A DNA stretch of 45,541 bases from Bacteroidota bacterium (GTDB lineage Bacteria; Bacteroidota; Bacteroidia; Bacteroidales; JAIFNC01): positions 1-45,541 of the forward strand of contig JAIFNC010000168.1 in the NCBI GenBank assembly GCA_020047935.1, written 5' to 3'. Position 1 is the stretch's first letter. Each line of letters opens with the position of its first letter. The notes below the pieces were generated by a model that was not told the DNA's origin, did not search any database, and saw only the letters and a list, made by a program, of their open reading frames with translations. Positions 9,116-33,645 of the stretch are shown here, in pieces. A program made the translations under genes and the position numbers.

Positions 9116-9123
9116 CCTGAATT

Positions 9124-13434: not shown

Positions 13435-14114
13435 TGGCAACAAAAAGCAGCAGCGATAAGCTGAAAATTATAGCTTACAAAAAAAACACCTTTTCGGAAG
13501 GCGATAAAGTGGGCGAATATACCGTTCGGTACAATCCTACCAATATTCAGCATTCCTACGACATCAATTTCGATGAAGAGCAAGCTGTTGGTTCGTCGGG
13601 TACCGAAAATAAATACCAATTTTCGCGGCCGGAACGACTAACTTTCGAAATAATTTTCGATGCAACGGTTATGGCAGAAGGTTCGACCGAAAAATATGAG
13701 GTTGATACCGATATAAAAGATTTTAAAAAATTAGTGGTCGATTTTAACGGCGATATTCATCGACCAAATTATATTCGATTAGCTTGGGGTGCCTTTTCGT
13801 TTAAAGGACAAATAGCCGAAATATCGTTTGCCTATTCGTCGTTTTCGCCACAAGGCAAAGCCATGAAGGCAAAAGCCGATGTTACTTTTGTTGAAGTGGT
13901 GGACGTAGGTACACGTTTGGCCGCCGAAAATAAAAGCTCGCCCGACTTAACCCACATTATTACAGTAAAAGAAGGCGATAGTTTACCTATGCTTTGCCAT
14001 AATATTTACAACGACCCGTTGTATTATTTGCAAGTGGCACGCATTAATAACTTAGAAAATTTTAGAAAATTAAAAGCCGGCGAAACAATTATGTTTCCTC
14101 CGCTTGATAAATAA
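13434..14114 (+). CDS. Tube-initiator-like protein with C-terminal LysM domain (Afp7 / P2 gpX-like)
   Basis: 226 aa. C-terminal LysM: HIITVKEGDSLPMLCHNIYNDPLYYLQVARINNLENFRKLKAGETIMFP. The N-terminal half is of tube-fold size. Confidence 0.8.
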   Translation: MATKSSSDKLKIIAYKKNTFSEGDKVGEYTVRYNPTNIQHSYDINFDEEQAVGSSGTENKYQFSRPERLTFEIIFDATVMAEGSTEKYEVDTDIKDFKKLVVDFNGDIHRPNYIRLAWGAFSFKGQIAEISFAYSSFSPQGKAMKAKADVTFVEVVDVGTRLAAENKSSPDLTHIITVKEGDSLPMLCHNIYNDPLYYLQVARINNLENFRKLKAGETIMFPPLDK

Positions 14115-14120
14115 AAATAT

Positions 14121-15914: not shown

Positions 15915-15925
15915 TAAAAAAAACA

Positions 15926-16225
15926 ATGCCTCCAGCCGCTCGATTAACCGATATGCATGTTTGCCCTATGGTAACTCCGGGTGTTCCGCCGGTTCCGCAT
16001 GTAGGCGGGCCGGTAGTAGGGCCCGGAATACCAACCGTACTTATAGGCGGAATGCCGGCTGCCGTACTGGGCGACAATGCCGTTTGCACCGGACCGCCCG
16101 ATACGATAATTAAAGGTTCGGCTACCGTATTAATTGGTGGTAAACCGGCAGCTCGAATGGGCGATTCTACAGCACACGGCGGATCGGTTGTGGCAGGTTT
16201 TCCGACAGTAATGATTGGAGGTTAG
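15926..16225 (+). CDS. PAAR-domain spike tip protein (Afp10-like)
   Basis: 99 aa. PAARLTDMHVCP...IGGMPAAVLGD...IGGKPAARMGDSTAHGG: three PAAR-type repeats. Confidence 0.9.
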   Translation: MPPAARLTDMHVCPMVTPGVPPVPHVGGPVVGPGIPTVLIGGMPAAVLGDNAVCTGPPDTIIKGSATVLIGGKPAARMGDSTAHGGSVVAGFPTVMIGG

Positions 16226-16238
16226 AAAAAATAAAGCT

Positions 16239-16646
16239 ATGAGCGCAGATATACCATTTATTGGCAAGGGGTGGAGTTTTCCTCCCGAATTTACAAAGGG
16301 AAGTACCGGAATTAAAATTGTTACCGGGCAAGAAGATATTGAGCAAAGCCTTTATATATTGCTTTCTACGCGCATTGGCGAACGTTTTATGTTGCCAAAT
16401 TTTGGCTGCGATTTAAGCATTTTGCTTTTCGAATCGATGGACGAAGGATTGCAAAAACGCCTCGAAGATATGATTCGCGGAGCTATTTTATTGTACGAAA
16501 CACGCATTAATGTCGAAAAAATAGTTTTCGATTATAGGGTTGACGACGGATTGGTAAATATTGATATTCAATATATCATACGAACTACAAATACACGTAC
16601 CAACATCGTTTACCCTTACTATTTAAACGAAGGTACCAATTTATAA
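16239..16646 (+). CDS. Baseplate wedge protein gp25/GPW-like (Afp9-like)
   Basis: The ORF is open from a TTG at 16215; the first ATG is at 16239. IGKGWSFPPEF...VTGQEDIEQSLYILLSTRIGERFMLPNFGCDL is the GPW_gp25 signature. Confidence 0.9.
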   Translation: MSADIPFIGKGWSFPPEFTKGSTGIKIVTGQEDIEQSLYILLSTRIGERFMLPNFGCDLSILLFESMDEGLQKRLEDMIRGAILLYETRINVEKIVFDYRVDDGLVNIDIQYIIRTTNTRTNIVYPYYLNEGTNL

Positions 16647-16670
16647 AACCTTTCAAAGAGAATAAAACTT

Positions 16671-19600: not shown

Positions 19601-20453
19601 TGCGTTTCAAACCAGAGTAAGCGAGCGGTTGAATCATAAAAACCGTGCAATAACTCTTTGGGACTACGAACATATTATATTGCAGCATTTTCCTATGTTG
19701 CATAAAGCTATTTGCTTAAACCACTTAAACAGCGAACTTAAGCCGGAGCCCGGTAGCGTGCTTATAGTAGTTTTGCCAAAAATAACAGCACAAGACCGGT
19801 TGGCAAAAGTTATGGAACCCAGAACTACTGCCAGCCAATTGCAATTGGTAAAAGAAACTTTGATTGAAAAATGCTCGCCTTTTGCAAAAATTGAAGTGGT
19901 AAACCCACGTTACGAGCAAGTTCAAGTACGTTGCGATGTTAAATTTGCTGAAGGGTTGAACGAACGATTCTACTTGCAGAAGATGAACGAAGACCTCAAG
20001 GCATTTCTTAACCCTTGGGACAGTGTTGAAGACTCGAGCGTTGAGTTTAATAATAAAATTTTTGCCATGCATGTGGTTTATTTCCTCGACACCCGACCTT
20101 ATGTTGATTATGTTACAAATTTAGCACTGTTTCATATTGTAAATCAGGGTATTTACAACATCGAAACAGCCAGCGAAAACAATACGGTGTTAGAACCCAC
20201 CACAGATATTTCAATTTTTGTTTCGGCCGAGGAGCATATAATTAAAGTGGTAGGCGCACAAGTTGAAATTAAAGCAATTGGCGCCATGATGATTGGTAAA
20301 GACTTTAGTGCCGAGCATTTTGTTGAAAAACGAACCTTTAAAGGAATTGAAAGCGACCAAATAGAAATTAGCCATCAGGTAGACCCTGATAACGAAATTA
20401 TACAGAACGATACAAAATTTGTATTTTCATTTAAGAATTTTTTCAGTGAGTAA
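16671..20453 (+). CDS. Large baseplate protein, Baseplate_J / gp6-like (Afp11-like)
   Basis: 1260 aa. C-terminal Baseplate_J-type motif NRAITLWDYEHIILQHFPMLHKAICLNH. Lies directly after the gp25 gene, as in other eCIS loci. Confidence 0.8.
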   Translation: MNNGITHNDRYLKELDAQFFKVDERSLDDFMDFITKFSKLIAFYDANNNLDGDASQILENDITVLLLQISSLDIEHIDGKFELLLQDFKEKHIDVKKDVFASARIWLKAMKAKQQSEEKLIGFLLELHQQIENWNLKTVTDVDFNYEIRKLIETKFSKTLARLIAFDKLLIAKGLIEPRKRIINYLRKPEWQAEEYSYPVDFFSEEKEKYFDSITSEELHDLFHNIQYSLSPIIKSANRYSQKYLSDGNTRPHVALFITFIEMYKHAQYDINQFTQRHLDYFYNEILKFNRQPENADNVFLTFTVQDSVEVCKIPENARLLAGQDSEGNDLIYHLDNELIVSKASIDYRRAIVNEIKAVSAAENNFEYVNLNNNVNKTDYAENKEVSDFFMGISLVSSFLKLSEGDRTVKIALELQRYSFDKFLTLFETEVKNNIDLNVPTIDEFAAQLFSFSYSTTEDGEQSWYTVPENKITTKFQKNSDGNPINRLTIIVEISTLAPPIDSCISDRFPEAKAKNLPVCHLLINNRKLIFYNYFKVLVIEKIHLATGVNGIRDLIIQNDYGLVDASSPFEPFTATPAIGSTLYIGHETIFSQHLDKLELVFDWHDIPIDANGFPEYYEGYSSVESNEVFKASLSFLKNRKWYPENNKQLISLFQDGEVDPDNGTVAVSSTTVVDTIDLKDINFHFSGPPVLNLEDSYSRICKNGFLKLEFAFPQPAFGHKEYLNIIKREAGSIKKGGQMQIPNAPWTPTLRGLSINYTSSIIIDIQNQDPLNKAYIYHVHPFGEKIISEPIGREINLLPQYPLGTELILGIRNFNIHELLSIFFQINEFSSDIEEEKPEVHWTYLNQDEWLPIKYEQLVGDSTNDLSNSGIIVFDFASFDKDYFNAKSLFENRSYTPNIFWLKCKSLHGEEFVHNIRLIELHAASATYKNNGNAKDHLEKPMPANSIKRFIDDIADIKAISQPFESVNGKPEESQLAFQTRVSERLNHKNRAITLWDYEHIILQHFPMLHKAICLNHLNSELKPEPGSVLIVVLPKITAQDRLAKVMEPRTTASQLQLVKETLIEKCSPFAKIEVVNPRYEQVQVRCDVKFAEGLNERFYLQKMNEDLKAFLNPWDSVEDSSVEFNNKIFAMHVVYFLDTRPYVDYVTNLALFHIVNQGIYNIETASENNTVLEPTTDISIFVSAEEHIIKVVGAQVEIKAIGAMMIGKDFSAEHFVEKRTFKGIESDQIEISHQVDPDNEIIQNDTKFVFSFKNFFSE

Positions 20454-20469
20454 TCGATAAATAAAAGTT

Positions 20470-21165
20470 ATGGCAACGAAAAACCGTGCAATACTTAAAA
20501 ACTACTTCTTAAAGGGCAATGTTCCCAAAGAAAACCATTTTCAGGATTTTATTGATTCCTGCATTAACCAAGAAGACGACGGACTTTGGAAAAAACAAGA
20601 TGAAGCCTTACGCATTAAAGCCGAAGGTACCCAGAGTGAAATTCTTCAGTTTTACCGCAATATAGAAGATATGCGCCCAACTTGGACCATTAGTTTGCGT
20701 GCCAAAGACGGCAACGAAGGTTTCAATATTTCGGAAGAAGAAAGCCGTTTATTTATTGAAACCGGCGGAAATGTTGGTATAGGAACCACGCAACCGCGAA
20801 CAAAGCTGCAAGTTGAAGGTTTTGTGGGAATGCAAGGCAGAATAGGATTCTTTGCGCAGGGCGAAGTGCCTGCCGATGGGCAATGGCACGATGTAATAAC
20901 CGGCTTAAACCACTACAATGCATTCGAAATAATGGCGGTAACCGGAAAACGAGGGTCGCATGCCATTACCCACGCAATTGCTGTTAGTGCATACGGAAAT
21001 TCGAATCCTGCTATTTCAAAAACCCAAGGTTTTTATGGCTGGATGCGAAATAAAATTGACGTTCGGTGGGAGGGTACTTATTTCGACTATAGCTTGCAAG
21101 TGCGCACCCGACGAAACATTGGCGAAGGAGTTTTTATTACCTACAATATTGCCAAATTGTTCTAA
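20470..21165 (+). CDS. Short tail-fibre-like / baseplate-peripheral protein
   Basis: 231 aa. N-terminus AILKNYFLKGNVPKENHFQDFIDSCIN and the internal GGNVGIGTTQPRTKLQVEG resemble motifs I associate with fibre-like proteins of Bacteroidota and cyanobacterial tail-like loci. This rests on recollection only. Confidence 0.45.
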   Translation: MATKNRAILKNYFLKGNVPKENHFQDFIDSCINQEDDGLWKKQDEALRIKAEGTQSEILQFYRNIEDMRPTWTISLRAKDGNEGFNISEEESRLFIETGGNVGIGTTQPRTKLQVEGFVGMQGRIGFFAQGEVPADGQWHDVITGLNHYNAFEIMAVTGKRGSHAITHAIAVSAYGNSNPAISKTQGFYGWMRNKIDVRWEGTYFDYSLQVRTRRNIGEGVFITYNIAKLF

Positions 21166-21185
21166 TTAAATTAAAAAAGTGCAAA

Positions 21186-21365
21186 ATGGACGAACCTATT
21201 CATATTGAACTGGACAGAGAAGAACTCAATACCATTATTGATGCATTGTCGAAAGAACCTTTCAGAAAGGTGTATAAACTGATAGAAAAAATACACTTGC
21301 AAGCCAACGAACAGTTAAGTTCCGAGAGAAATACCAACATCAATAATAAGACGTTAAACGAATAA
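21186..21365 (+). CDS. Small ORF (59 aa) absent from the supplied ORF track
   Basis: ATG at 21186, TAA at 21363-21365. Translation: MDEPIHIELDREELNTIIDALSKEPFRKVYKLIEKIHLQANEQLSSERNTNINNKTLNE. It exactly fills the gap between 21165 and 21396 on the operon strand. Confidence 0.45.
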   Translation: MDEPIHIELDREELNTIIDALSKEPFRKVYKLIEKIHLQANEQLSSERNTNINNKTLNE

Positions 21366-21395
21366 TTTACCTACGGGGAGAAATTTACCTACCTT

Positions 21396-24104
21396 ATGGC
21401 AGAAAATATACCAACCATTAAAGCGATTGAGCCTACGCAGGACATTCTGGATTTCAAGTATTTGAAAGAGCTTGGACTTGCTGAATTGCAAAAGCTTACC
21501 GGAAATATTTGGACCGATTATAACCACCACGACCCAGGTATTACGGTGCTCGAAATTTTGGCGTATGCACTTACCGAATTGGGATTCCGGTCGCAATATC
21601 CGGTTGAAGATATTTTGAGCAACAAGGAACAAATGCAAAATACGCTATACAGAACTGAGGAAATTCTGCCTTCAAATGCTGTTACAATTAAGGACTACCA
21701 TAAGATTATTCTTGATATTGAAGGAGTTAAAGATGCCATAATATACCCTTCGCGCAAATTTCCGGAGTTTAAAGGATTATTTGCCATAAATATTGAACTG
21801 TATCCGGAGTTTGACACCGAAATTAAGCAAACTAAAATTGTTAATACCATATTCGAAAAACTGCACAAGAACCGAAATTTATGCGAAACATTTTATAAAA
21901 TTTCGTTTATTGAACATGTTCCGGTTATTTTCGATATTGATATAGAAGTAAATGCACAGCAAAACTTAGCCGATGTTTATTTGGAAATGTACCGCCGACT
22001 CACTGAATACTTGGCGCCTACCATAAATTTTTACGGAATTGACGAATTGCTTGAGCAAGGCTTTGAAACCGACCAAATTTTTACCGGACCATTGCTCGAA
22101 AATGGTTTTGTGCTCGAATCGGAGTTTAAGCGTATCGATTTACGAAATAAAATTTTTGCATCCGACCTTATCCATTTCATCATGGAAATTCCGGGTGTAG
22201 TAATGATAAAAAAACTTCAAATAAGAAACGAAAATAACGAGTATCTCAGTTGGTTTTACAGTGTTGAACAAGGAAAAGCCTTTAAAATTAACCTCGAAGA
22301 GTCGTCATTGCGATTTTTTAAAGTAGGTAAAGAAGTTAAACTTGAGCAAGATATGACGCAGGAGCTTAAAAACATTGATTTAAAAGGCGATTCGAAACTG
22401 CTCTACAAACGACTTACTTTTGAACCGGTAACCGGCACAAACCGAAGCTTAAGTTCTTATTATTCAATACAAAACGATTTTCCGGATGTTTACGGTATTG
22501 GCGAGCTGGGTTTGCTTTCGAGCGAAACGCTAAAACGCAAAGGACAAACCAAGCAGTTTAAAGGCTATTTAATGTTTTTTGAGCAAATTCTAGCCAACTT
22601 CTTTGCACAACTCGAAAATTTGGCTTCACTGTTTTCAATCGAAGAAATTGCCAATACCTATAACAGTCAGCCGCTTAACGGTGTACCGGGTGCCGAATTT
22701 GTTTATCGCGAATTTGTGGCGCAATGCATGAAGAAAAATATGGATGTTTCCGACCAAAAACTCATGCGCCGAGAATGGAAAAATCAGCTCGACAAATTTA
22801 GCGTTAAATTAAATGCACAATTGCATGATATAGTGGAAGACAGAGCCACTTTTTACGACCGACGAAACCGAATTTTAGACCATTTACTGGCTCGTATGGC
22901 TTTTAAATACAGCGATTATAGGTTCGATTTCGATTCGGAAGGTCTGTTGCAAGAAGCGCTTATTAAGCATAAAACTATTATAGCAACAGAGTTTATTCAA
23001 CTTAGCAAAGGCAGGGCCGCTGCACAAAGCATGTTGCCCGAGGATTTACTGATTCCCGGCAATATTTCAGGCTTGGAATATAGAATTAAAACCTTGCTTA
23101 AACTTGAAGGTACATCTACCGAATTTCCGTTCGACTATTTTAAAAACGGACTTTTTTTGGGCGACATAAATAGTTGGGAAGAAAACCTAAACGACCTGAG
23201 TTTTTCATTCGCCAATTTGTTTGGCGATGTTGCTATGGATGCACTATTCTTATACGGTTCAGCAAAGCAAAATTACCAAATACTCGAAAACGAAAGTAAA
23301 TACAGCATTCAATTATTTAATTCGGAAGGTACATTAATAGCCGATGTATTGAAGGAATTTTTGGAAAAAGATGCTGCTGCCAAATTGGTTGACGATATTT
23401 GTAATCGCTTGATTGCCATTTCAAAACTTTCGGAAAGCATTCAGGTTATCGAACGAATTTTGTATCGTCCGCATCTTGAAATGAAATATTTTACCTTCTC
23501 AATTTGGCTAAACAAAGAAACTATAGCCTTCATAAACGACGGATATTTAACCTTCAACGAGCGAAACCTAAAAGTTCAAACTATACTGTTAAGCGCAACA
23601 AACCCCAATAATTACAGCTTTATTGAGTTGGGCAACCAATATAAAATTCTGCTTAAAAACAACGACGGCGAAGTTTTACTTACCAGTCACCGATTTTTTA
23701 ATTCGTTGCCTGAAGTAGCAAAAGAAATTGAAGAATTAGTGGATGTTTTTGTTCGAATTGAAAAAGGTACCCTTGAACGCGATACGCATTTTAGGTTTTA
23801 CACCAAGCATTACGATACGTTCAATTTGGTCGATAATCCGTATTCGTTTATAACTACCATTTTAATTCCGTCGTGGCCTGTAAAATTCCAAAATCAGGCG
23901 TATAAAACTTTGCTCGAAAATAAAATTCGCGAGGAAACCCCGGCGCATATTTACCCCGACATAAAGTGGGTAGGAATTAATAATATGGTTAATATAGTTG
24001 AACTTACACGCGAATACAACCAATTATTGATTCAAACACCGATTGATTTTGAAAAGTTGGAACAAATTTCGGAAGACTTATTCCGGTACTTTGTTCGTTT
24101 ATAA
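21396..24104 (+). CDS. Second large baseplate wedge protein (Afp12 / P2 gpI-like)
   Basis: 902 aa. N-terminal motif WTDYNHHDPGITVLEILAYALTELGFR is typical of eCIS baseplate proteins. Synteny: it follows the Baseplate_J gene. Confidence 0.7.
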   Translation: MAENIPTIKAIEPTQDILDFKYLKELGLAELQKLTGNIWTDYNHHDPGITVLEILAYALTELGFRSQYPVEDILSNKEQMQNTLYRTEEILPSNAVTIKDYHKIILDIEGVKDAIIYPSRKFPEFKGLFAINIELYPEFDTEIKQTKIVNTIFEKLHKNRNLCETFYKISFIEHVPVIFDIDIEVNAQQNLADVYLEMYRRLTEYLAPTINFYGIDELLEQGFETDQIFTGPLLENGFVLESEFKRIDLRNKIFASDLIHFIMEIPGVVMIKKLQIRNENNEYLSWFYSVEQGKAFKINLEESSLRFFKVGKEVKLEQDMTQELKNIDLKGDSKLLYKRLTFEPVTGTNRSLSSYYSIQNDFPDVYGIGELGLLSSETLKRKGQTKQFKGYLMFFEQILANFFAQLENLASLFSIEEIANTYNSQPLNGVPGAEFVYREFVAQCMKKNMDVSDQKLMRREWKNQLDKFSVKLNAQLHDIVEDRATFYDRRNRILDHLLARMAFKYSDYRFDFDSEGLLQEALIKHKTIIATEFIQLSKGRAAAQSMLPEDLLIPGNISGLEYRIKTLLKLEGTSTEFPFDYFKNGLFLGDINSWEENLNDLSFSFANLFGDVAMDALFLYGSAKQNYQILENESKYSIQLFNSEGTLIADVLKEFLEKDAAAKLVDDICNRLIAISKLSESIQVIERILYRPHLEMKYFTFSIWLNKETIAFINDGYLTFNERNLKVQTILLSATNPNNYSFIELGNQYKILLKNNDGEVLLTSHRFFNSLPEVAKEIEELVDVFVRIEKGTLERDTHFRFYTKHYDTFNLVDNPYSFITTILIPSWPVKFQNQAYKTLLENKIREETPAHIYPDIKWVGINNMVNIVELTREYNQLLIQTPIDFEKLEQISEDLFRYFVRL

Positions 24105-24137
24105 AAGCTAAAACACATTAAAATTAGAAAGCAACTG

Positions 24138-24761
24138 ATGAAAAAACTAATTCCCTTATTGTTTTTTGTGCTTTCGTTGCCGGGTTTTTCGCAAATACAA
24201 GTAGGAAAAGTGCTGTTGGACGAAGCCGAACTTAAATCGGTTCCAACGCTAACTTTCGATTTTGGGTTGCCTATAAACATAACCGGCCCTTATGCTTTTA
24301 TGAAAAGCGAAGAAATGTTTATTGAAAGCGGTTTGTATTTAACAACCGACCGTTATGTGTTCGATTTAAACGGCAATCGGTTTTCGCACCGAAGCATAGG
24401 CTTTAATATTCCGCTTAGGGTGGGCAAAATAATAAAAAATAAGTATTATATTGGCGGCGGAAATAATTTCAACTTCCCTATACATTACCGCCAATTCAAA
24501 TACGATGCGTTCAGTTTCAACAACAAGCAGAAGGTAGTTTCAGAGTTTTTTTCAGACCAAATTGTGAAATTTTACCCAAGTTTAGAACTGAATGCCGGAT
24601 TTAGTACACACGGAATTGGTCGGTTTTCAATTCGTGTTCAAATGCACTTTTTAGATTTTTTCAACCTTGGTTATACGGAAAACGGAGTATTACCCTACGA
24701 AAAAATTACTTGGACAAACCGCTATAAGCTTATTATCTTGTCCTATAATCCCGGCTTATAA
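24138..24761 (+). CDS. Signal-peptide protein, possible small outer-membrane beta-barrel, embedded in the eCIS operon
   Basis: 207 aa. Signal peptide MKKLIPLLFFVLSLPGFSQ. Alternating hydrophobic/aromatic beta-strand pattern throughout. No recognised eCIS motif. Confidence 0.5.
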   Translation: MKKLIPLLFFVLSLPGFSQIQVGKVLLDEAELKSVPTLTFDFGLPINITGPYAFMKSEEMFIESGLYLTTDRYVFDLNGNRFSHRSIGFNIPLRVGKIIKNKYYIGGGNNFNFPIHYRQFKYDAFSFNNKQKVVSEFFSDQIVKFYPSLELNAGFSTHGIGRFSIRVQMHFLDFFNLGYTENGVLPYEKITWTNRYKLIILSYNPGL

Positions 24762-24779
24762 AAGCGAATTTGGACGCAA

Positions 24780-25607
24780 ATGATTAATCGTTTAAAACTA
24801 AATCTTAAATTTTTAGCCGAAAAATCGGCAATTGATATTCAAAATAACATTGCCGAAAGCGTAAAGCACAAACTACCCGAAACTGCGCAGCAAATAATCG
24901 AGGATATTGGTATTCCAAACCATGCAACGCTTATAATTGACAAGCTGGAATTCGATTTGGGCGTTTTACCTGCCCAACACACTGCCGAAATATTTATGGA
25001 ACGCCTCACAGACAGTTTGCGTAAAGCATTGAAAAACATAGCCGAAAAGCAAATTCATGAAGGGGTAACAATTAGTAATACAGAAGCTTCGGAACATGAT
25101 GCTTATTTTTTTTATTTAGCAGAAGGGTATTTTCCGTGGTGGTATAAACTCGAAGCCGGTTTGGCTGCCTTGGCAAGTAAAATACAGAAACAGTTTGAAG
25201 TGAAATTGTTTGAAAAACTAAGTTCGAAAAGCCAAATAAACTTAATAAAACGACATTATTTTGCTATCGCACCTGAATTGCGGAAACCCTTTATTTTAAG
25301 TTTGGTGAGTGCATTTAAAGCTAAAAATTCAAACTCGGAAAACAGTAATACCCTAAACGAGTTTCAACGTTTTTATAATTATATTGAAGAAGAAAATACG
25401 GCAACCGGATTAACCGAATTGCTTAAAGCTATAGAAACCGGTTCCTTTTCGGTTGCCGGCAGAACCCAAAACAATGAGCTTGGAGAAGAATTAAAACCAA
25501 GAATTGACTTAAGAGCCGATTTTCAGACATATTGGGAGCAAATAACAAAACTAAATTCGAATAGAAGTAATGATGCAATAAAACTTAGCAATTTTCCGCC
25601 CGATTAA
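24780..25607 (+). CDS. Tape-measure-like protein, N-terminal fragment (gene interrupted by frame breaks)
   Basis: 275-aa ORF, helical composition, syntenic position of Afp14 (after the baseplate genes, before the ATPase). Coding continues in frame 2 (25589-25789, no start codon) and then in the original frame (from 25785). Confidence 0.5.
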   Translation: MINRLKLNLKFLAEKSAIDIQNNIAESVKHKLPETAQQIIEDIGIPNHATLIIDKLEFDLGVLPAQHTAEIFMERLTDSLRKALKNIAEKQIHEGVTISNTEASEHDAYFFYLAEGYFPWWYKLEAGLAALASKIQKQFEVKLFEKLSSKSQINLIKRHYFAIAPELRKPFILSLVSAFKAKNSNSENSNTLNEFQRFYNYIEEENTATGLTELLKAIETGSFSVAGRTQNNELGEELKPRIDLRADFQTYWEQITKLNSNRSNDAIKLSNFPPD

Positions 25608-25847
25608 AACAACAACACAGGTTCAAAAACGACAACGAACTGTTCAATTTCATTAACAATTTTCTGAATAATAACCACGCGAGCGCACTGGGAATTTTCT
25701 TAAAAAAACATATTAAAAGCGAACTTAAAAGCGATTTTACGCTTCGTGAACTGAATTTGTTGAGCAATTTCCAAGAAAAAATAAAGTAAGCCGGAGGTAT
25801 TACAAGGTTTTCTTGAAAAAACAGACCTTGATTTTCTAAAAAACGAA

Positions 25848-27530
25848 TTGCTAAATTCCAAATTACAAAATATACCGCATTTTTTTATAGAATTATTGGC
25901 GGAACGTTTTTTTGGCAAAGCATTGAAAACAGTATTCGACAGTAAAATTTCACCAAAAATAAGTTTAACAACCTATAATATTCTTTTTGCTGAAGTTTTT
26001 TTGGAAAGTGTTGCAAATAATAAGCTTGGTTATAATTGGGAAATTTTACCGATACAATTTTTAAAACCAACTACTTGGCAAGCCGGAATCAGCTCATTTG
26101 TTTCGAGCATGTTCGGAAATTTGGCACTTAAAAAAGCCGAATTTAATTTACAAGAAAAAGCTAAAAAAGACCGAAAACAATGGCTTACCGAAAATTTGTC
26201 GGTATATTTTTCGAACTTAAGCTATTTTCTTGAAAACGGTGCACTTCCTTGGAACAGTCCGTTCGAAAGCGTTGCCGAACTCGAAACATTTTATTGGAAC
26301 GAAAAACAACGAACCATACCGGCAACTGCCAGTTTTTTAAGCAATAGTTTTAGTAGTTATCACAGAATTAAGACGTTATATTTGGCTTTTTCCGAAGCAT
26401 TTGCTGATACTATATACAAACAAGTTTTCGAACAGGAAAAAGCTGATATTTCGGATATTATCGAAAAATCGGTTCGTAAAGAAAAAAGCTTGGATTTGCC
26501 TGCCGATTTTGGCGACTTTTTGCACCGAAGTGTATTTATGAAGCACCACGTTGAATTATTGGGTGCTATTGCAGGAATTATTGCAGAAAATTTAAACCTA
26601 AGCGCCAATAAATTAGCCGATAAAATTTACACTACACTTTTCGAAAACTATAAAAACGATATACTTACCATTTTAAGCGAAGCAATTCAAAAAGAAGAAG
26701 CCTTAAAATTGGATAAGGAAGCGTTGGAAAGCCTTTATAATCAGTCGTTTTTAAAAACAAAACCGGAAATAATTCAGTTATTGGTTGCCGAACTGAATAA
26801 AATACCGAAGGAAACAGCGTTGCGCGACCGAGTCGAAATATTGTATAAAGCAGTATTTGAAGGGAGAAAACCAAAATTCGATCAACTGATAGCACAAAGC
26901 AGCAAGGAAAACATGGTGCAAATAAGACAAAAGCTGCAAGTAGAAGAAATTGAAGATGTATACCAAAAAATAATTGAAGAAAAATTCGATTGGCAAAGCG
27001 GAAAAAAAAGTGGCGAACCAATTCATATAACCAATTCGGGCTTAGCTATTTTGCATTCGTTTTTGCCGCATTTGTTCAAACGGTTGGGGTATTTGCGCGC
27101 CGAAAAAGGAAAGAATTATTTTATTGATATTGCAGCACACGAACGAGCGGTTTTGGTTAGTCAATATTTGGTTTTTGGAGCACAACCGGTGGAAGAAAAT
27201 CAACTGGTTTTTAACAAACTGATGTGCGGATATTCGGTTGGGTTACCTATAAACACCGATTTGCAACTTACCGAAACCGAAATTGACGAATGCGAAACCT
27301 TGCTGAAATCGATTATAAAACACTGGGCAATTTTGGGTGAAGTATCAGTTGCAGCCTTGCGCGAATCATTTTTACAACGCAACGGAATGATAGTTTACGA
27401 CAAAGAAAACGTGAACTTGAAAGTTGAACAAAAAGGGATAGATATTTTAGTATCGAAGTTGCCCTGGACATTTGGCACAATACGCTTTTCGTGGAACGAA
27501 TACCTGATTTTTGTTGAATGGTACGCCTGA
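25848..27530 (+). CDS. Tape-measure-like protein, C-terminal fragment
   Basis: 560 aa from a TTG at 25848; the frame is open from 25785. Highly helical. The C-terminal block LPWTFGTIRFSWNEYLIFVEW resembles the conserved C-terminus of eCIS tape-measure proteins (recollection, not searched). Confidence 0.5.
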   Translation: MLNSKLQNIPHFFIELLAERFFGKALKTVFDSKISPKISLTTYNILFAEVFLESVANNKLGYNWEILPIQFLKPTTWQAGISSFVSSMFGNLALKKAEFNLQEKAKKDRKQWLTENLSVYFSNLSYFLENGALPWNSPFESVAELETFYWNEKQRTIPATASFLSNSFSSYHRIKTLYLAFSEAFADTIYKQVFEQEKADISDIIEKSVRKEKSLDLPADFGDFLHRSVFMKHHVELLGAIAGIIAENLNLSANKLADKIYTTLFENYKNDILTILSEAIQKEEALKLDKEALESLYNQSFLKTKPEIIQLLVAELNKIPKETALRDRVEILYKAVFEGRKPKFDQLIAQSSKENMVQIRQKLQVEEIEDVYQKIIEEKFDWQSGKKSGEPIHITNSGLAILHSFLPHLFKRLGYLRAEKGKNYFIDIAAHERAVLVSQYLVFGAQPVEENQLVFNKLMCGYSVGLPINTDLQLTETEIDECETLLKSIIKHWAILGEVSVAALRESFLQRNGMIVYDKENVNLKVEQKGIDILVSKLPWTFGTIRFSWNEYLIFVEWYA

Positions 27531-27566
27531 AAAGCTTAAAAATACTTACTTAAGAAACGAACGAAC

Positions 27567-29057
27567 ATGAGTGGGAAAAATCAACAAAACGACAACCAAG
27601 CAGCGAGTCAAAGTCGCGCTGCTGCTCACTTGTTTAACCAACTGAATAAAGAAAAAACTGCGGACGAAACCGAAGTTTCGAACCTGCATGCCGAACCCGA
27701 AGTAGCGCAGGATGCAAGCAGCGGAAAAGGCTTACCTGCCAATTTGCAAACCAAAATGGAAGGCGCTTTCGGTACCTCGTTTAATGAATTGGAGGTTAAA
27801 ACAAATTCGGTTCAGGCGCAAGAAATTGGTGCGCATGCTTTTGCGCAAGATAATGAAATACATTTTGCCCCCGGAAAATACGACCCCGAAACCACGGGCG
27901 GACAAAGGCTTATTGGGCACGAGTTGGCACATATTGTTCAACAAAAACAAGGTAAAGTTGAACCTAACTTTGAAGGCAACAACTTATTGGGAAATTACGA
28001 ACCCGGCTTGGAAAACGAAGCCGACCGTTTGGGACAAATGGCAGCCAAAGGGCAAGATACCGGCGTAAGTTTAGGCACCGAATCGGCTACCGTTAATGCA
28101 CCGGCGCAATTCTTTTTTGGCGATTTAATGAAATTAGCCGAATCGGGAATGAGTGCTATTGAATCGCTTACCGGCGGCGATGAAGGGGAGAAAGAAGCAG
28201 AGGAAGAAGAATCGACTTTCGATTTCATAAAAAATAGCCTTGAGGCAGTAACCGGTATGGCCGATGAAGGAAAAGAAGAAGAAGCTGCAGCCGGTGGCGA
28301 TGCCGAAGCTGCGGAAGGTGAAGAAGAAGGAGGAGGTTCGCTTTTCGACATGGCTCGCAGCGGGGTAGGCGCTATTGATTCGTTTTTCGGTGGCAAAGGC
28401 GAAGACGGCGAAGCGTCGTCGGCGGCAGATACTGCTACCGGATTAATTGATATGGGCGAAAGTGCTTTCAATATGTTTTCCGGCGGCAATGAGGATGCAG
28501 ATGCAAGCGAAGAGCAAAAAGAGGAAACACCTGCCAACGAGGAGGCCGCAACCAACGAAGAAGCTCCTGCCAATGAGGCTGCCGAAAATGAAGCAAATGA
28601 AGGTGCCGATACCATAGCCGAAAATGAAGCAGGCGAGGAGGAAGAAGCGCCGGCAGAAGAAATGAGTTTCTTGGACATGGTACGCGAAGATTTTGAGTTT
28701 GAAGAGGAGGGAACTGAGGAAGAAATTATAGAAGAAGAAATTTTGATGGAGGAGGAAACCGTTATTGAAGGTGGTCCCGGAACCGGAATTAAGAATAATG
28801 AAAACGACGGAAATTATGTTCCGCTTGAATATGATGAAAGCCAACCGTTGTTTGATGATGAACGTGAAAATGAAGGAACTACCGTTCCACTCGAAAACGA
28901 CCCGAATATGCCACTTTTCGACGATGAATTGCCCGGAATGGAAACTGAAGACGAAATGTTTTACATGGACGTAGAACTCGATTTGGCTATTGACGAGGCT
29001 ATGGGGGCAGTAGAATGGGTTGATATTTTGGCGGAAAATATAGAATGGGTTGATTAA
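27567..29057 (+). CDS. DUF4157 (HExxH metallopeptidase-like) protein with hyper-acidic repeat-containing C-terminal region
   Basis: 496 aa. DUF4157 core LPANLQTKMEGAFGTSFNELEVKTNS..AQEIGAHAFAQDNEIHFAPGKYDP...GQRLIGHELAHIVQQ, with HELAH at 27918-27932. The last ~300 aa are strongly Glu/Asp-rich with internal repeats. Confidence 0.85.
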   Translation: MSGKNQQNDNQAASQSRAAAHLFNQLNKEKTADETEVSNLHAEPEVAQDASSGKGLPANLQTKMEGAFGTSFNELEVKTNSVQAQEIGAHAFAQDNEIHFAPGKYDPETTGGQRLIGHELAHIVQQKQGKVEPNFEGNNLLGNYEPGLENEADRLGQMAAKGQDTGVSLGTESATVNAPAQFFFGDLMKLAESGMSAIESLTGGDEGEKEAEEEESTFDFIKNSLEAVTGMADEGKEEEAAAGGDAEAAEGEEEGGGSLFDMARSGVGAIDSFFGGKGEDGEASSAADTATGLIDMGESAFNMFSGGNEDADASEEQKEETPANEEAATNEEAPANEAAENEANEGADTIAENEAGEEEEAPAEEMSFLDMVREDFEFEEEGTEEEIIEEEILMEEETVIEGGPGTGIKNNENDGNYVPLEYDESQPLFDDERENEGTTVPLENDPNMPLFDDELPGMETEDEMFYMDVELDLAIDEAMGAVEWVDILAENIEWVD

Positions 29058-29072: not shown

Positions 29073-30407
29073 ATGAAAAAGAACGCTTTAAGTATTGAAC
29101 GCGAACTAAAATGGCTTGAATTGTTGCTTGCATTTCGGTTCGAATGTTACAAGCAAAATAGGCGTTCGATGGAGGTTATTAAACAATTGCCTCCTAATTT
29201 AACCAAAGACGATTCGGTTTTTGCTAATTTTGTTAAACAGCACCAACTAAATGTAATTGAACGACTTGCACTTATAATGACCTTGGCGCCGCATGTTCGA
29301 CCTCAGATTTACGAACTGTTTCTTAAAAATCAGTCGAAGGAATCGGCAGGAAATTCGGAATTTGGCGGCTGGATTGGCAAAGCGCACGGCGGATTTTTGC
29401 CTACCATTGAAACGCTGGCTTTTGTAGCTGGCGGAGCTAATTTGGCAATTCGGTTTTCGCTGGTAGATTTGTTTACTCCCGACCATAAATTTATAAAAAA
29501 CGATATAATTTCGATAATTCATGCCGAAGACCATGAGCCTTTTTTTAGCGGATTTATGTCGCTTTCGCCTAGTTTAATTGAGCTTTTTACTGCCGGAAAA
29601 GAATCGAAACCGGTTTTTAGTACCAAATTTCCGGCAAAACTAATTAAAACCGATTTAAGTTGGGACGATTTAGTGATTGACGAAAACGTAGAAAACGAAG
29701 TGCTTCACATAACCAACTGGATAAAAAATAAAGACCAAATATACCAGCAATGGGGGCAGCAAGGCGTAATAAAACCGGGCTATAAGGCGTTGTTTCACGG
29801 GCCGCCCGGTACAGGCAAAAGCTTTACCGCCGGTTTAATTGGCAAAGCAACCGGCAAGGATGTATACCGAGTCGATTTGTCGATGGTTGTTTCCAAATGG
29901 GTAGGCGAAACCGAAAAAAACTTAGCACGTATTTTCGATTCGGCTGAAAATAAAGACTGGATTTTGTTTTTTGATGAAGCCGACTCGCTTTTCGGTAAAC
30001 GAACCAATACACAAAGCTCGCAGGAGCGGTATGCAAACCAAGAAGTTTCGTACCTTTTGCAACGGGTTGAAGATATTAACAGTACCGTTATTTTAGCTTC
30101 GAACTTAAAAGGAAATATGGACGAAGCTTTTTTGCGAAGGTTTCATTCAATTATCTATTTTCCGCTGCCTAAAGCAAAGCAACGGTTGCAAATGTGGGAA
30201 AATTATTTGGGCAAACGTTTCAATATGGATGCTGAAATTGATTTAGCTGCCATTTCGGAAGAATACGAAGTTACCGGAGCAAGCATAGTGAATATTTTGA
30301 AATACTGCGCAATAAAATCGGTTGAAAGACCGGACAAAAAAATTATGAAAGACGATTTAGTATTTGGTATTCGACGCGAAATAATGAAAGAAGGCAAGTT
30401 TTCCTAA
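29073..30407 (+). CDS. eCIS AAA+ ATPase (Afp15-like)
   Basis: 444 aa. Walker A GPPGTGKS, Walker B ILFFDEADSLF, second region of homology ILASNLKGNMDEAFLRRF. Preceded by an N-terminal domain of ~220 aa. Confidence 0.9.
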   Translation: MKKNALSIERELKWLELLLAFRFECYKQNRRSMEVIKQLPPNLTKDDSVFANFVKQHQLNVIERLALIMTLAPHVRPQIYELFLKNQSKESAGNSEFGGWIGKAHGGFLPTIETLAFVAGGANLAIRFSLVDLFTPDHKFIKNDIISIIHAEDHEPFFSGFMSLSPSLIELFTAGKESKPVFSTKFPAKLIKTDLSWDDLVIDENVENEVLHITNWIKNKDQIYQQWGQQGVIKPGYKALFHGPPGTGKSFTAGLIGKATGKDVYRVDLSMVVSKWVGETEKNLARIFDSAENKDWILFFDEADSLFGKRTNTQSSQERYANQEVSYLLQRVEDINSTVILASNLKGNMDEAFLRRFHSIIYFPLPKAKQRLQMWENYLGKRFNMDAEIDLAAISEEYEVTGASIVNILKYCAIKSVERPDKKIMKDDLVFGIRREIMKEGKFS

Positions 30408-30454: not shown

Positions 30455-33400
30455 ATGATAAACTTTTTACTTTGGATTCCGCCTTTTACAGCAATTATTG
30501 CTTTTGGAATGGCGTATTACTTTTTTACCTACGTAAAAAATAGTCCTCACTATGGCGAACATGGACAGTATGCTGAATTAATTAAACAAGGAACCATTCG
30601 GTTTTTAAAACCGCAAATCGTATTCAATGCAAAGGTTTTTATTGTTGTGCTGGTGCTTATGGCAATAGCGGCAATACTTAATTTAATGCAACCGGTTATT
30701 TTGCTGTTTTTTATTTTGGGCGGCATATTTTCGGTACTTGCGGCGTTGGCAGGCTTGTTTATTGCGCCGCTCACCGGTACACGAATTTTGTATGCCAACC
30801 AAAATTTTGATTTGGCAAGAGTGCTCAAAATAAGCTATCGCGGTGGCTTGTCGCAAGGGTTAATCGTGGTAGGTTTGGGGCTTTTGTTTGTATGGCTGGC
30901 ATATTTTCTATCGGTACATAGTTGGGAACTGCCGGCACGCGAAAAAGGCTCGCAAATTGCCTTGGTTTTGCTCAGTTTTGGTTTTGGTGCATCGTTAAAT
31001 ACTTTACTTACACGAATTTCGACCGGCATATTTGCTAAAACTGCCGATATAACCGCCGATACCATAAGCAACACCACTACCGGAATGCACGAAGACGATT
31101 TGAGCAACCCGGCAACTTTGGCCGATGCTGTGGGCGATAATTTGACCGATGCCGTAGCGATGGGTGTTGATTATTTTGAAACCTACGTAATTTCAATGAT
31201 TGCCGCCGTAGTGCTTGGTGCAATTGCGTTTTCGGGTTCGGTTGATGTACAAATGCACGCCATTTTATTACCCATGATATTTGGCAGTATAGCAGCATTG
31301 ATTTCGGTTTTTACCGGTTCGTACAGCCGAACAAAACGTTGGGCAACCCAAAAGAATATGCTTAATTCGCTTATTTATAGCCAGTACATGTACTCGGTAT
31401 TTATTATAATTGTTTCATTTGTGGTACTGTATTTCTTCGATTTTCCCAACCCTTGGGGGCTTTGGGGCGCTTTAAGCATTGGTACCTTACTAAGTCTTGT
31501 GCTTATAAAAATTACCGAACGAAGTACTTCGGAAGATTACGGACACACACAATTTGTTACCTACCAAGCTTTTACAAGCGTAGCTCATACTATTATTGGC
31601 GGGTTAGGTTCCGGAATGATTTCAACTTTTGTTTTAATACTTGCGCTAACCGGTGGAATAATTGCTTCGTATGCAACTGCTACTCTAACGCACTTGTATT
31701 TGTTTCCGTTGGGCATGTACGGAATTGCGCTTACCGGCTTGGCTATGTTGGCACCTATTTCGCTAACCATTGCAGCAAACTTAATGAGCCCGGTGGCCGA
31801 CCAAGCCTTGGCGGCCGGCAATTTAACCGAACTTTCCGAAGAAGAGCAAAACCGATTGCAAGCATTCGATTCGCTTGGCAATACAACCGCTGCAGTTGGC
31901 AAAAATATAACCTTGGTTGCTTCTGTAATTAGCGGAATTGCAATTATTTCGGCTTATGTTTCCGGAATGAAAGCAGTGGCTGTACATAATTTCAACCTCA
32001 ATGGTTTCTTTATTTTTCCGAATGGAGTAAAAACCAAAACCGTTGAAGAATTATATGCACTTACCGACGGACAGTTACTGCTTAACTTCAATGTATTTCT
32101 TTCAAATCCGTTCTTTATTTTGGGCGCACTGTTAGGGGCACTTACCATTATGTTTTTAAGCGGAAAAAGCATTGTTTCGGTGGCTAAACTATCGTCGCAA
32201 CTCATTGAAGAAATGCGCTTTAAAATGCAAAGTCTGAATTCTGAAAGTTCCGATCCCGGGCTTTGGATGCATAATCTGCAAAAACTATCGCGCAAGGAAA
32301 CGGTGTTACCCGTAATTTTTGCTTTGGCAATGCCCGTTGTTGTAACGCTTTTGTTTGGGGTAGCCGGAGTATTGGGACTTATGGTGGGCACGTTGGTTAT
32401 GGGTTTTATGTTTTTGGTGTTTCTGGCAAGTGCCGGTGCTATTTTCGACAATGCTAAAAAACTTTCGTTGAATGGCGTAATTGGTAAAGATTATTCCGAA
32501 ATAAAAAACCAAGTACTTATTGCCGACTCGGTTGGCGACCCGCTAAAGGATACCGCTGCACCTATGCTTAATGCGCTTATTAAGTTAGTTTTAACCATTA
32601 GTGTAGTTATGACCGGTGTAACGGTTTATATGGATTCTAAGCAACCTCCAAAACCGCTCGACCACCACTTGTTCCGTGTGCAAATAAACCAACTCGATAC
32701 CGATAAACCGGTTAATAATGTTGAACTGAATTTGCTAAATTTGGTTAGCGGCAAAGTTTCAACCGAACAAACCGACGAATTGGGTTTTATGGAAATTAAA
32801 CTCAAAAAAGGCGACCGTTTTGTACTTACCCTGCAACTTGAAAATTACGAAACAATGGTTGATACCATTGATACCAAAACGCTGCAAAAAGATACCATTG
32901 ATTACCAAAAAGCAATGGCATTTTTGCCGTATTTTATTACCGGAACCTGCGAAATGCGAGGCAGCGAAACGCGTGTAGTGGGCTTAAAAGTAGTACTTCA
33001 GGACGAAACCAATAACCACATTGCCGAAACTACCACCGACAAATTTGGCGATTTTACCTTCCGATTGCGAGCCAAACATGCCTACAAAGTACGAATGCAA
33101 ACCGATTCGTTGTTGGTTCGAAATGGCTATTTTGTTACCGACAGTTTAACCGATAACGAACCGGAATTGCGACAAACCTTTAAAATGGACAGTAAAACGG
33201 TAGGTTCAAAAATTGAATTGAACATTAATTTTGCTTCCGGAAAATCGGACCTCGATTCGCTTACCATGCTTTTTATCGACCGCGAAGTGGTGCAGTTAAT
33301 GAAAGATAATGCCGATGTGATTTTTGAATTTGGTGCGCATACCGATTCGCGAGGCGATGCCCGAGCCAACGAAATACTGTCGCAAAAGCGTGCCGATTCG

Positions 33401-33571
33401 GCAGTTAAATACGTACTTAGCAAAGGTATACCGGCAAACCAAATAAAACCGGTTGGCTATGGCGAATCGGAAATTAAGAACGATTGCATGGATGGAGTTG
33501 ATTGCTCGGACGAAGAACATGCAGTAAACCGAAGGGTAGAAATTAAAGTATTGCAATTGCTTGGCAAGTAA
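30455..33571 (+). CDS. Membrane pyrophosphatase (H+/Na+-PPase) homolog fused to beta-sandwich domains and a C-terminal OmpA-like peptidoglycan-binding domain
   Basis: 1038 aa. M-PPase motifs in order: GIFAKTADITAD; EDDLSNPATLADAVGDNLTDAVAMGVDYFETY; SPVADQA; FDSLGNTTAAVGK; AGAIFDNAKK; IADSVGDPLKDTAAPMLNALIKLV. These are followed by two CarboxypepD_reg-like segments and the OmpA_C region NINFASGKSDLD...HTDSRGD...NEILSQKRADSAVKYVLSKGI...GYGES...NRRVEIKV. Confidence 0.85.
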   Translation: MINFLLWIPPFTAIIAFGMAYYFFTYVKNSPHYGEHGQYAELIKQGTIRFLKPQIVFNAKVFIVVLVLMAIAAILNLMQPVILLFFILGGIFSVLAALAGLFIAPLTGTRILYANQNFDLARVLKISYRGGLSQGLIVVGLGLLFVWLAYFLSVHSWELPAREKGSQIALVLLSFGFGASLNTLLTRISTGIFAKTADITADTISNTTTGMHEDDLSNPATLADAVGDNLTDAVAMGVDYFETYVISMIAAVVLGAIAFSGSVDVQMHAILLPMIFGSIAALISVFTGSYSRTKRWATQKNMLNSLIYSQYMYSVFIIIVSFVVLYFFDFPNPWGLWGALSIGTLLSLVLIKITERSTSEDYGHTQFVTYQAFTSVAHTIIGGLGSGMISTFVLILALTGGIIASYATATLTHLYLFPLGMYGIALTGLAMLAPISLTIAANLMSPVADQALAAGNLTELSEEEQNRLQAFDSLGNTTAAVGKNITLVASVISGIAIISAYVSGMKAVAVHNFNLNGFFIFPNGVKTKTVEELYALTDGQLLLNFNVFLSNPFFILGALLGALTIMFLSGKSIVSVAKLSSQLIEEMRFKMQSLNSESSDPGLWMHNLQKLSRKETVLPVIFALAMPVVVTLLFGVAGVLGLMVGTLVMGFMFLVFLASAGAIFDNAKKLSLNGVIGKDYSEIKNQVLIADSVGDPLKDTAAPMLNALIKLVLTISVVMTGVTVYMDSKQPPKPLDHHLFRVQINQLDTDKPVNNVELNLLNLVSGKVSTEQTDELGFMEIKLKKGDRFVLTLQLENYETMVDTIDTKTLQKDTIDYQKAMAFLPYFITGTCEMRGSETRVVGLKVVLQDETNNHIAETTTDKFGDFTFRLRAKHAYKVRMQTDSLLVRNGYFVTDSLTDNEPELRQTFKMDSKTVGSKIELNINFASGKSDLDSLTMLFIDREVVQLMKDNADVIFEFGAHTDSRGDARANEILSQKRADSAVKYVLSKGIPANQIKPVGYGESEIKNDCMDGVDCSDEEHAVNRRVEIKVLQLLGK

Positions 33572-33586
33572 GCTAAACCTTTCAGT

Positions 33587-33629
33587 AAAAAAAAGCTGCT
33601 AATCGTATCCGGTTAGCAGCTTTTTTTTT
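33587..33629. terminator. Bidirectional rho-independent terminator between convergent genes
   Basis: A-run, then AGCTGCTAA (33594-33602), 10-nt loop, TTAGCAGCT (33613-33621), then a T-run to 33629. Confidence 0.9.
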
Positions 33630-33645
33630 GAAAATAAACGTTCAA

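Follow-up and report, generated by a model that had tools for sequence, protein, structure and literature searches.

What does a membrane pyrophosphatase do in the gene cluster of a contractile injection system (CIS)? This question is raised by a stretch of 45,541 nucleotides from a Bacteroidota bacterium (contig JAIFNC010000168.1 of assembly GCA_020047935.1), the whole of which is called the window below. In the window, the open reading frame (ORF) at 30455..33571 on the + strand encodes P0001, a protein of 1038 residues in which a diverged membrane pyrophosphatase (M-PPase) is followed by two beta-sandwich domains and an OmpA_C domain, and the gene lies beside the genes of a CIS that resembles AlgoCIS. 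A first-pass annotation, made from the sequence alone, had already read the gene as an M-PPase fused to a peptidoglycan anchor and had associated it with the CIS. In our analysis, P0001 is best explained as a paralog of the K+-dependent, Na+/H+-pumping M-PPases of Bacteroidota. The rare clade to which it belongs adjoins the same injection system in each of three genomes, which suggests that this machine has taken over an ion pump for use in the envelope. We tentatively favor, at a little under an even chance, the reading that this neofunctionalized paralog is an inner-membrane, wall-tethered envelope component of the AlgoCIS-like system and serves it as an adaptor, as an anchor or as a gate for exit.

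The gene is real and intact, and the domain fusion is not an assembly artifact. The fusion can be accepted as genuine because the ortholog P0002 (1111 residues) is collinear with P0001, with 59% identity over all 1038 residues and one gap, because a second relative, P0121 (1051 residues, 32% identity to P0001), carries H_PPase, two CarboxypepD_reg and OmpA domains in the same order, and because an identical protein was called in an independent Logan assembly of SRR931349. P0002 is encoded on a 2.49-Mb contig of a Bacteroidales metagenome-assembled genome (MAG), and after its OmpA domain it has an additional Lys/Glu/Pro-rich low-complexity tail of about 70 residues (residues ∼1040-1111), which P0001 does not have.

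The domain structure of P0001 was established from profile matches and from an AlphaFold2 model, which was calculated with a 78-sequence alignment and reached a mean predicted local distance difference test score (pLDDT) of 82 and a predicted template modeling score (pTM) of 0.71. H_PPase (PF03030) matched residues 14-719 over profile positions 1-645 of 645 (E=2e-125; 420 bits, cutoff 29.7), and the M-PPase domain (residues 1-728, 30455..32638, +) was modeled with 16 transmembrane (TM) helices, mostly at pLDDT 85-97. When the model was compared by Foldseek with the solved Thermotoga, Vigna and Pyrobaculum M-PPases, target-normalized TM-scores of 0.84-0.90 were obtained (0.88 for TmPPase), and the 16-TM two-ring M-PPase fold was recovered in P0001. 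The first beta-sandwich (residues 737-821, 32663..32917, +) was read from the modeled strands (pLDDT about 65-86), with sub-threshold matches to bMG3 (residues 741-784) and CarbopepD_reg_2. The second (residues 826-911, 32930..33187, +) is CarboxypepD_reg-like, with a Pfam match at 837-883 just below threshold (31.5 bits against 32.3) and matches that fall in the C-terminal halves of the CHU_0125_OmpA and PorE models. The OmpA_C-like domain (residues 924-1035, 33224..33559, +) is matched by OmpA (PF00691) at residues 926-1010 (44.8 bits, cutoff 27.2), is modeled with a beta-alpha-beta fold, and contains the residues D964, R979, Cys1011 and Cys1017 discussed below. Topology and structure prediction, which the first-pass annotation had called for, thus returned the 16 TM helices, the M-PPase fold, both sandwiches and the OmpA fold. 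Its claim of two CarboxypepD_reg-like segments stands for the second, near the Pfam cutoff, while the first is seen in the structure model and has no significant Pfam match.

A search for H_PPase and OmpA in one polypeptide, also proposed at that stage, showed that the fusion is rare. In a word-indexed search of 5.8 billion (5.8e9) proteins, the full architecture was found only in the query and P0002, and the next matches were ordinary PPases of about 730 residues with about 33% identity. An exhaustive HMMER scan of 1.84 billion (1.84e9) 50%-identity cluster representatives added only P0121 and P0123, a protein of 716 residues without a tail and with 29% identity to P0001. The clade is therefore represented by four clusters in 1.84e9. 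P0121 proved to be a singleton when it was used alone as query, and its PPase domain shares 54% identity with canonical enzymes of Cytophagales type. A profile search with an alignment as query did not recover P0121, the word index being a limit of that search. Scanning of genome contigs with the three-protein alignment (motif A[IA][FW]DNAKK) returned 79 ordinary PPases and the known Bacteroidales MAG, with no new clade member. At the DNA level, the pattern WATQ..YF..P.P..LWG matched the window, the P0002 locus (L001/L003) and the locus of P0121 (L002), and nothing in IMG/VR or in the JGI metagenomes. The looser pattern G[IV]FAK.AD...D-20-AD.VGD...D had no match in IMG/VR and matched 13 JGI stretches, all of them distant PPases (22-28% identity to P0001) outside the clade.

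A neighbor-joining tree of PPase domains (200 bootstrap replicates) placed P0001, P0002, P0121 and P0123 in one group with 100% support and the topology (P0121,(P0123,(P0001,P0002))), within the K+-dependent PPases of Bacteroidota/Ignavibacteriota type. In this tree the CIS-linked members stand out by branches several-fold longer than those of the rest, the acceleration coinciding with CIS linkage, and the grouping may be affected by long-branch attraction. The clade is also backed by rare states shared at otherwise invariant positions: all four proteins have T249A, have lost K261 and D11.50, carry an aromatic residue in place of R610, and contain a WATQ motif that is absent from all others among 407 collected PPases. 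By parsimony on the tree, the tail would date from the base of the clade, and the lineage of P0123 would have lost it. Three other proteins, P0173, P0197 and P0269 (loci L083, L084 and L085), were considered as CIS-linked relatives and rejected on account of housekeeping contexts and lost catalytic residues. They are M-PPase-like proteins of 1020-1066 residues with C-terminal extensions of about 300 residues in which Pfam finds no domain, most of their hydrolytic-centre residues are replaced, and they appear to be a separate group of M-PPase pseudoenzymes.

The link to the injection system was then followed across genomes. In the window, the gene stands last in its array, 47 bp after the CIS AAA ATPase gene (29073..30407, +; Pfam AAA), as the first-pass annotation had stated, and the AlgoCIS-like structural and cargo genes occupy 8603..29057 (+). 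The genes upstream of the PPase gene amount to a complete CIS set, in which Pfam recognizes Pvc16_N, sheath, three tube proteins, a VgrG-like spike, gp25, baseplate J, tape measure, DUF4157/eCIS_core and AAA. The sheath is closest to that of AlgoCIS (7adz, E=1.6e-125) and a 902-residue protein is closest to Alg12 (7aeb, E=3e-83); for both, the next closest is the thylakoid-anchored CIS of Anabaena. Three of the four clade members are CIS-linked, and their genes lie at three different positions of homologous clusters. The gene of P0002 (L001/L003) is internal to the cluster, with the tape-measure gene on one side and two DUF4157/eCIS_core genes on the other, and that of P0123 (L086) immediately upstream of the cluster. 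The CIS association is thus extended to two further genomes, while the description of the gene as last in the array applies to the window and not to P0002, in mid-cluster, or P0123, at the cluster start. In L086, the PPase homolog directly precedes a module of lipoprotein, GH18, PP2C-like and TPR genes (12207-16552 of L086), and these lead genes match those of the window gene for gene at 30-69% identity. The order shared by L086 and the window is small lipoprotein, GH18, a 295/316-residue protein, TPR, Pvc16_N, a 341/345-residue protein, sheath and tubes.

The PPase evolves at the pace of the faster proteins of the cluster: its identity is 59% between the window and L003, where the other cluster proteins range from 42 to 90%, and 29% between the window and L086, where they range from 30 to 69%. 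Related clusters lacking the PPase gene were sought in IMG/VR with the AAA ATPase, and no relatives were found. A full-text search of a paper library returned no relevant paper that ties pyrophosphatases to contractile injection systems, only incidental mentions. Two signaling genes were observed near the relatives. In L001, a 2074-residue Pkinase-AAA_16-GAF-PAS-HisKA-HATPase protein (17846-23336) follows the CIS cargo genes. In L002, a SpoIIE/PP2C phosphatase gene (1332-2570) is divergent from the gene of P0121, and the window cluster also holds a PP2C-like gene.

Given that the PPase domain is strongly diverged, its state was assessed residue by residue. Across 228 near-invariant alignment columns (at least 95% conserved in 117 canonical PPases), P0001 keeps 116 and P0002 129, compared with 195 in a distant plant enzyme. 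Identity to the nearest canonical Bacteroidota enzymes is about 34-36%, and all 13 NCBIfam PPase equivalog models scored below cutoff (best 410 bits against 894), each under half of it. The motifs reported initially (KTADITAD, DAVGDNLTD, FDSLGNTTAAVGK, FDNAKK and DSVGDPLKDT) are all present, and the two examples of divergence were correctly read: GKVE is lost (K261 to N and E263 to T) and DNAGG reads DQALA. The residue list was fixed beforehand from Holmes et al., 2019 (PMC6882861). Its hydrolytic-centre set comprises 16 positions (K5.58, D5.61, D5.65, E5.76, D5.77, D6.35, D6.39, D6.43, D11.57, N534 in Vr numbering, D15.61, K15.64, D16.31, D16.35, K16.38 and D16.39). The catalytic Asp/Lys set, said at first to be mostly kept, is complete, since all 16 residues are retained in P0001, as they are in P0002 and P0121, with 14 of 16 in P0123. 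Given the overall loss, the chance of keeping all 16 is small (hypergeometric p=1.2e-5 for P0001 and p=7e-5 for P0002). Such retention is not automatic, because P0173, P0197 and P0269 lost most of these residues.

Among the other functional positions, P0001 retains R5.50, K12.50 and K16.50, a Glu of Na+ type at 6.53 and the A12.46/G12.49 pair that marks K+ dependence, and, as read from the alignment, the dimer-interface residues E13.59 and R13.62. Both P0001 and P0002 have lost K261, E263 and R272 (loop 5-6), D11.50, N508, R523, D527, R610 and Q611; in P0001, D11.50 is N442, K261 is N206 and E263 is T208. No clade member has K261, and E263 is missing from the three that are CIS-linked. D11.50, a coupling-funnel residue conserved at 98% family-wide, is lost in all four, and D6.50, conserved at 99.7%, is kept in P0001 and replaced by Ser in P0002. 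The coupling funnel and ion gate (R5.50, D6.50, D11.50, K12.50, S6.54 and K16.50) is thus not intact in P0001. Fold, profile and active site assign P0001 to the M-PPase family; it fails the equivalog thresholds and lacks one defining coupling residue. From these patterns we conclude that purifying selection has held the Mg-PPi (magnesium-pyrophosphate) site, and that remodeling affected the lid loops and some of the coupling network. P0001 probably still binds Mg-PPi, and ion coupling is likely to be altered because D11.50 and K261 are lost.

These data bear on the alternative that P0001 is a working PPi-energized Na+/H+ pump, an energy or fitness helper in the CIS island whose tail is only positional and which has no physical link to the CIS; such a pump might, for example, keep the membrane energized in stationary-phase cells that produce the CIS. 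The full-length profile match and M-PPase fold, the complete hydrolytic centre together with R5.50, K12.50, E6.53, K16.50 and A12.46/G12.49, the retained dimer-interface residues, and the 54% identity of the P0121 PPase domain to canonical pumps are what such a pump would show. It would not be expected to keep only about half of the near-invariant positions when a distant plant enzyme keeps 195 of 228, to score below half of every equivalog cutoff, to lose D11.50 and K261 throughout the clade, E263 in the CIS-linked members and D6.50 in the ortholog, or to lie on branches several-fold longer than those of other PPases. Moreover, a linkage that persists through three rearrangements is hard to explain for a generic pump. 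We regard this alternative as unlikely.

The location and the fold of the tail bear on the reading of a wall-tethered envelope component. In M-PPases, TM16 contributes D16.31-D16.39 to the hydrolytic centre on the cytoplasmic side and places K16.50 at the gate in mid-membrane (PMC6882861). Because TM16 runs from the cytoplasm outward and no hydrophobic segment follows it (maximum 19-residue Kyte-Doolittle mean 0.55), the tail is predicted to be on the non-cytoplasmic side, that is, periplasmic, in agreement with the initial placement. Residues 828-1034 match the C-terminal half of NF053607 (CHU_0125, E=6e-27), and residues 834-1008 match NF052230, PorE of the type IX secretion system (T9SS, E=1e-19). 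Among PDB matches of the tail, which also include 5wtp and Pal, the best is 6top, the C-terminal domain of PorE. A conserved Asp/Arg pair (TD...RA motif) belongs to the diaminopimelate-binding pocket of OmpA-like domains. In P0001 this pair is D964 and R979, which line up with the equivalent residues of 6top and 5wtp; neither varies among the three tailed proteins, and the same holds for Cys1011 and Cys1017, which are compatible with a periplasmic disulfide. Between P0001 and P0002, the OmpA domain (72% identity) and sandwich 2 (71%) are better conserved than the PPase (56%) and sandwich 1 (48%). The tail holds a bona fide OmpA_C domain, judged from these residues and profiles, and peptidoglycan binding is predicted.

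The cluster of the window opens with genes that may serve the envelope. These lead genes (3902..8243, +), assigned by Pfam, NCBIfam, signal and lipobox reading and synteny with L086, encode a lipoprotein of 184 residues with the lipobox FSSC, a GH18 protein of 604 residues with a signal peptide, a PP2C-like protein of 295 residues whose likeness is weak, and a TPR lipoprotein of 348 residues with the lipobox FAAC. A further signal-peptide protein is encoded at 24138-24761. Together with the PPase-OmpA protein, the two lipoproteins and the GH18 protein of the cluster provide the generic parts of a CIS envelope complex: a lipoprotein of the outer membrane, domains in the periplasm, an element that binds the wall, an enzyme active on wall or glycan, and a polytopic scaffold in the inner membrane. 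The comparison is with type VI secretion system (T6SS) membrane complexes, which have the peptidoglycan-binding TagL, the recruited wall hydrolase MltE, the polytopic transporter-like scaffold TssN and an outer-membrane lipoprotein. At the 3′ side of the PPase gene, a bidirectional intrinsic terminator (33580..33633, no strand) is shared with a convergent CesT-like gene. This was called from sequence and fold, and accords with the strong terminator first noted there: the hairpin at about 33580-33633 has -27.4 kcal/mol and z=-8.3, with an A-run before it and a U-run after it. A consensus terminator scanner missed the hairpin, probably because its stem or loop is outside the limits of the scanner.

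The same envelope genes could serve particle release. In this alternative, an uncoupled or leaky PPase derivative would depolarize the inner membrane in a holin-like way and, with the GH18 protein and the lipoproteins, free the particles. Cell lysis frees AlgoCIS-type particles, and no lysis genes are named in the AlgoCIS paper; degraded residues are seen in the coupling funnel and gate (D11.50 in all four proteins, D6.50 in P0002), mutations in the gate region are known to uncouple M-PPases or to allow ion back-flow (PMC6882861), and the signal-peptide GH18 and two lipoproteins are encoded in the cluster, with the PPase gene directly before them in L086. On the other hand, a constitutively leaky protein with 16 TM helices would be toxic, and a leak does not require that the Mg-PPi site be so strictly kept in full. 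PHROGs and NCBIfam matches gave no sign of a holin, endolysin or spanin, and GH18 members are mainly chitinases or endo-N-acetylglucosaminidases, with peptidoglycan hydrolase activity not shown here. The release alternative is therefore considered improbable. That the gene is a decaying passenger or an artifactual fusion of two genes by a frame or assembly error, as the strong divergence of the PPase domain and the in-frame stops that split the tape-measure gene of the same cluster might suggest, is effectively refuted by the uninterrupted 3117-nt ORF, the identical protein in the independent assembly, the collinear one-gap ortholog, the same domain order in P0121, and the selective retention of catalytic and peptidoglycan-binding residues.

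The favored reading, of a recruited envelope component, was further considered against known systems. In the 16-TM fold and hydrolytic centre, P0001 is like the K+-dependent Na+(/H+) M-PPases (PF03030; TmPPase, 4AV3/5LZQ; VrPPase, 4A01). It differs from the canonical enzymes in its 310-residue periplasmic tail, in the loss of about half of the near-invariant positions, and in the position of its gene in a CIS cluster instead of a housekeeping context. The tail shares CarboxypepD_reg, OmpA_C and the conserved pocket Asp/Arg pair with the C-terminal module of PorE/CHU_0125. However, the PorE module sits on an outer-membrane lipoprotein whereas that of P0001 sits on a polytopic inner-membrane protein, the TPR and beta-propeller of PorE are missing, and the CHU_0125 and PorE matches are far under the full-length cutoffs. 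TagL and the OmpA-extended TssL of the T6SS are likewise inner-membrane proteins, encoded with a contractile system and bearing a periplasmic OmpA-type wall-binding domain, and the T6SS peptidoglycan-binding domain 7bba matches the tail weakly. Outside OmpA they have no sequence relation to P0001, being of DotU type and single-pass in contrast to its 16-TM enzyme fold, and no TssL/DotU or TagL homology outside the OmpA domain was found among the Pfam and NCBIfam matches of P0001.

A functional analogy is offered by CisA, a lineage-specific membrane adaptor encoded in the CIS cluster of Streptomyces coelicolor, which does not belong to the purified particle and is needed for membrane recruitment and firing (PMC12237407). 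CisA is bitopic and Gram-positive, has no sequence similarity to P0001, and is without an enzyme-derived or OmpA domain, so that the likeness is one of function only. As for the architecture, the M-PPase of Paucibacter sp. KCTC 42545 (810 residues) has a C-terminal domain that was likened to OmpA by HMMER and whose role was stated to be unknown (PMC11210485). That protein is betaproteobacterial and K+-insensitive; its extra domain of about 110 residues has very weak similarity to OmpA (authors' TM-score 0.05), beta-sandwich linkers are missing, and no CIS context was reported. P0161, an 810-residue cluster representative that was not verified as the Paucibacter type, gave no Pfam OmpA match. 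The pairing of an M-PPase with an OmpA-like domain is thus not wholly undescribed, the Paucibacter case being weak, from an unrelated lineage and not CIS-linked. The view of the first-pass annotation that the architecture is undescribed stands for the full architecture and not for the pairing as such. What we therefore class as new here is the M-PPase architecture, the genomic role and the unusual evolutionary mode.

The closest characterized injection system is AlgoCIS of Algoriphagus machipongonensis, with a homologous sheath, Alg12-type baseplate, tubes, a DUF4157 cargo-type protein and an AAA ATPase; proteins with DUF4157 are the cargo type of AlgoCIS. The cluster of the window goes beyond AlgoCIS in its lipoproteins, GH18, TPR and PP2C-like genes and in the PPase-OmpA gene. 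We infer the membrane topology, wall binding, dimerization, CIS contact and activity of P0001. In the proposed mechanism, P0001 would be an inner-membrane dimer with a cytoplasmic face remodeled in loops 5-6, 11-12 and 13-14, and its tail would lie in the periplasm, pinned non-covalently to peptidoglycan. It would form the inner-membrane element of an envelope module with the cluster lipoproteins and the secreted GH18 glycosidase, and this module may provide the docking site of the cytoplasmic CIS particle at the envelope or control the particle's exit. PPi binding or hydrolysis would probably be retained as a conformational or regulatory input, with ion coupling altered. A more specific version is that of a recruited ion pump whose remodeled cytoplasmic face docks the baseplate or particle, whose PorE-like tail pins it to peptidoglycan, and in which PPi binding or hydrolysis, or else a flow of ions across the degraded gate, governs anchoring, firing or release; we consider this version possible, but less likely than not. 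The comparison with MotB, TolR and ExbD stators, drawn at first from the architecture, found no further support, and it is weakened because D11.50 is lost in the coupling funnel and because the CIS-linked P0123 has no tail.

Several observations weigh against an envelope role for P0001. Its contact with the CIS is putative and drawn from gene neighborhood, and the intact hydrolytic centre would fit equally well a working enzyme that is unrelated to docking. The linked loci are three, all of one CIS lineage, and the linkage may go back to a single ancestral capture. P0121 is encoded on a contig of 6.5 kb, with genes for glutathione peroxidase and a SpoIIE-type phosphatase upstream and 216 bp downstream; no CIS genes are found within 3 kb upstream, and the contig is too short to judge linkage. 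P0123 is CIS-linked and has no OmpA tail, so CIS association does not depend on the tail and wall anchoring is not universal. AlgoCIS particles were seen only free in the cytoplasm and never attached to a membrane. The words 'transmembrane' and 'OmpA' are absent from the main text of the AlgoCIS paper, which describes an 18-ORF cluster and in which 'pyrophosphatase' was not sought; nor was that paper one of those in which the library search found pyrophosphatase together with contractile injection system. Large surveys of CIS name no such gene, and the main text of one, on 1,129 metagenomic CIS loci, contains none of PPase, OmpA, transmembrane or accessory. Moreover, the cluster of the window may not be fully functional because its tape-measure gene is split: two ORFs in the same frame on the + strand, 24780-25607 (275 residues) and 25848-27530 (560 residues), are separated by about 240 nt with five in-frame stops. 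The L003 ortholog is a single ORF of 1183 residues with roughly 440 extra central residues. The split could represent a two-gene arrangement, a deletion or pseudogenization.

To our knowledge, M-PPases are treated as functionally uniform PPi-driven H+/Na+ pumps, and we know of no member with another role. If the more specific version of the recruitment reading is true, P0001 would be the first member of this family known to us whose primary role is not ion pumping, and its AlgoCIS-like lineage would be coupled to the cell envelope through a membrane adaptor of a new kind. The pattern of fast evolution, a kept Mg-PPi site, a gained wall anchor and linkage to an injection system would make a clear case of neofunctionalization. 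For the CIS field, it is largely a question how CIS particles assembled in the cytoplasm of Bacteroidota reach, attach to or cross the envelope, two examples being what anchors T6SSiv (T6SS subtype iv) and by which route AlgoCIS-type particles are released, and a PPase-OmpA protein encoded beside lipoproteins and a secreted glycosidase is a concrete, genetically testable candidate for the envelope link. Because the clade is very rare, its general importance depends on the mechanism that it reveals and not on its frequency.

Other genes of the window were also recorded. Convergent with the PPase gene lies a gene similar to CesT/Tir chaperones (33646-34035, -; PF22550, E=3.6e-45), and an effector chaperone of type III style beside a CIS cluster is unusual. 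A 231-residue protein with weak tail-fiber PHROG matches (20470-21165, +) stands out as the best conserved of the cluster by a wide margin: its identity between the window and L003 is 90%, and that of the others 42-72%. Upstream, at 1972-3085 (-), an extracytoplasmic function (ECF) sigma factor gene (2537-3085) is followed by a gene for a 186-residue protein with a hydrophobic segment, possibly an anti-sigma factor; the CIS cluster and these two genes are divergently transcribed. On the downstream side of the CIS locus, 36368-41612 (+) encodes several trypsin-like and other proteins with T9SS sorting domains (Por_Secre_tail), which place the organism in Bacteroidota.

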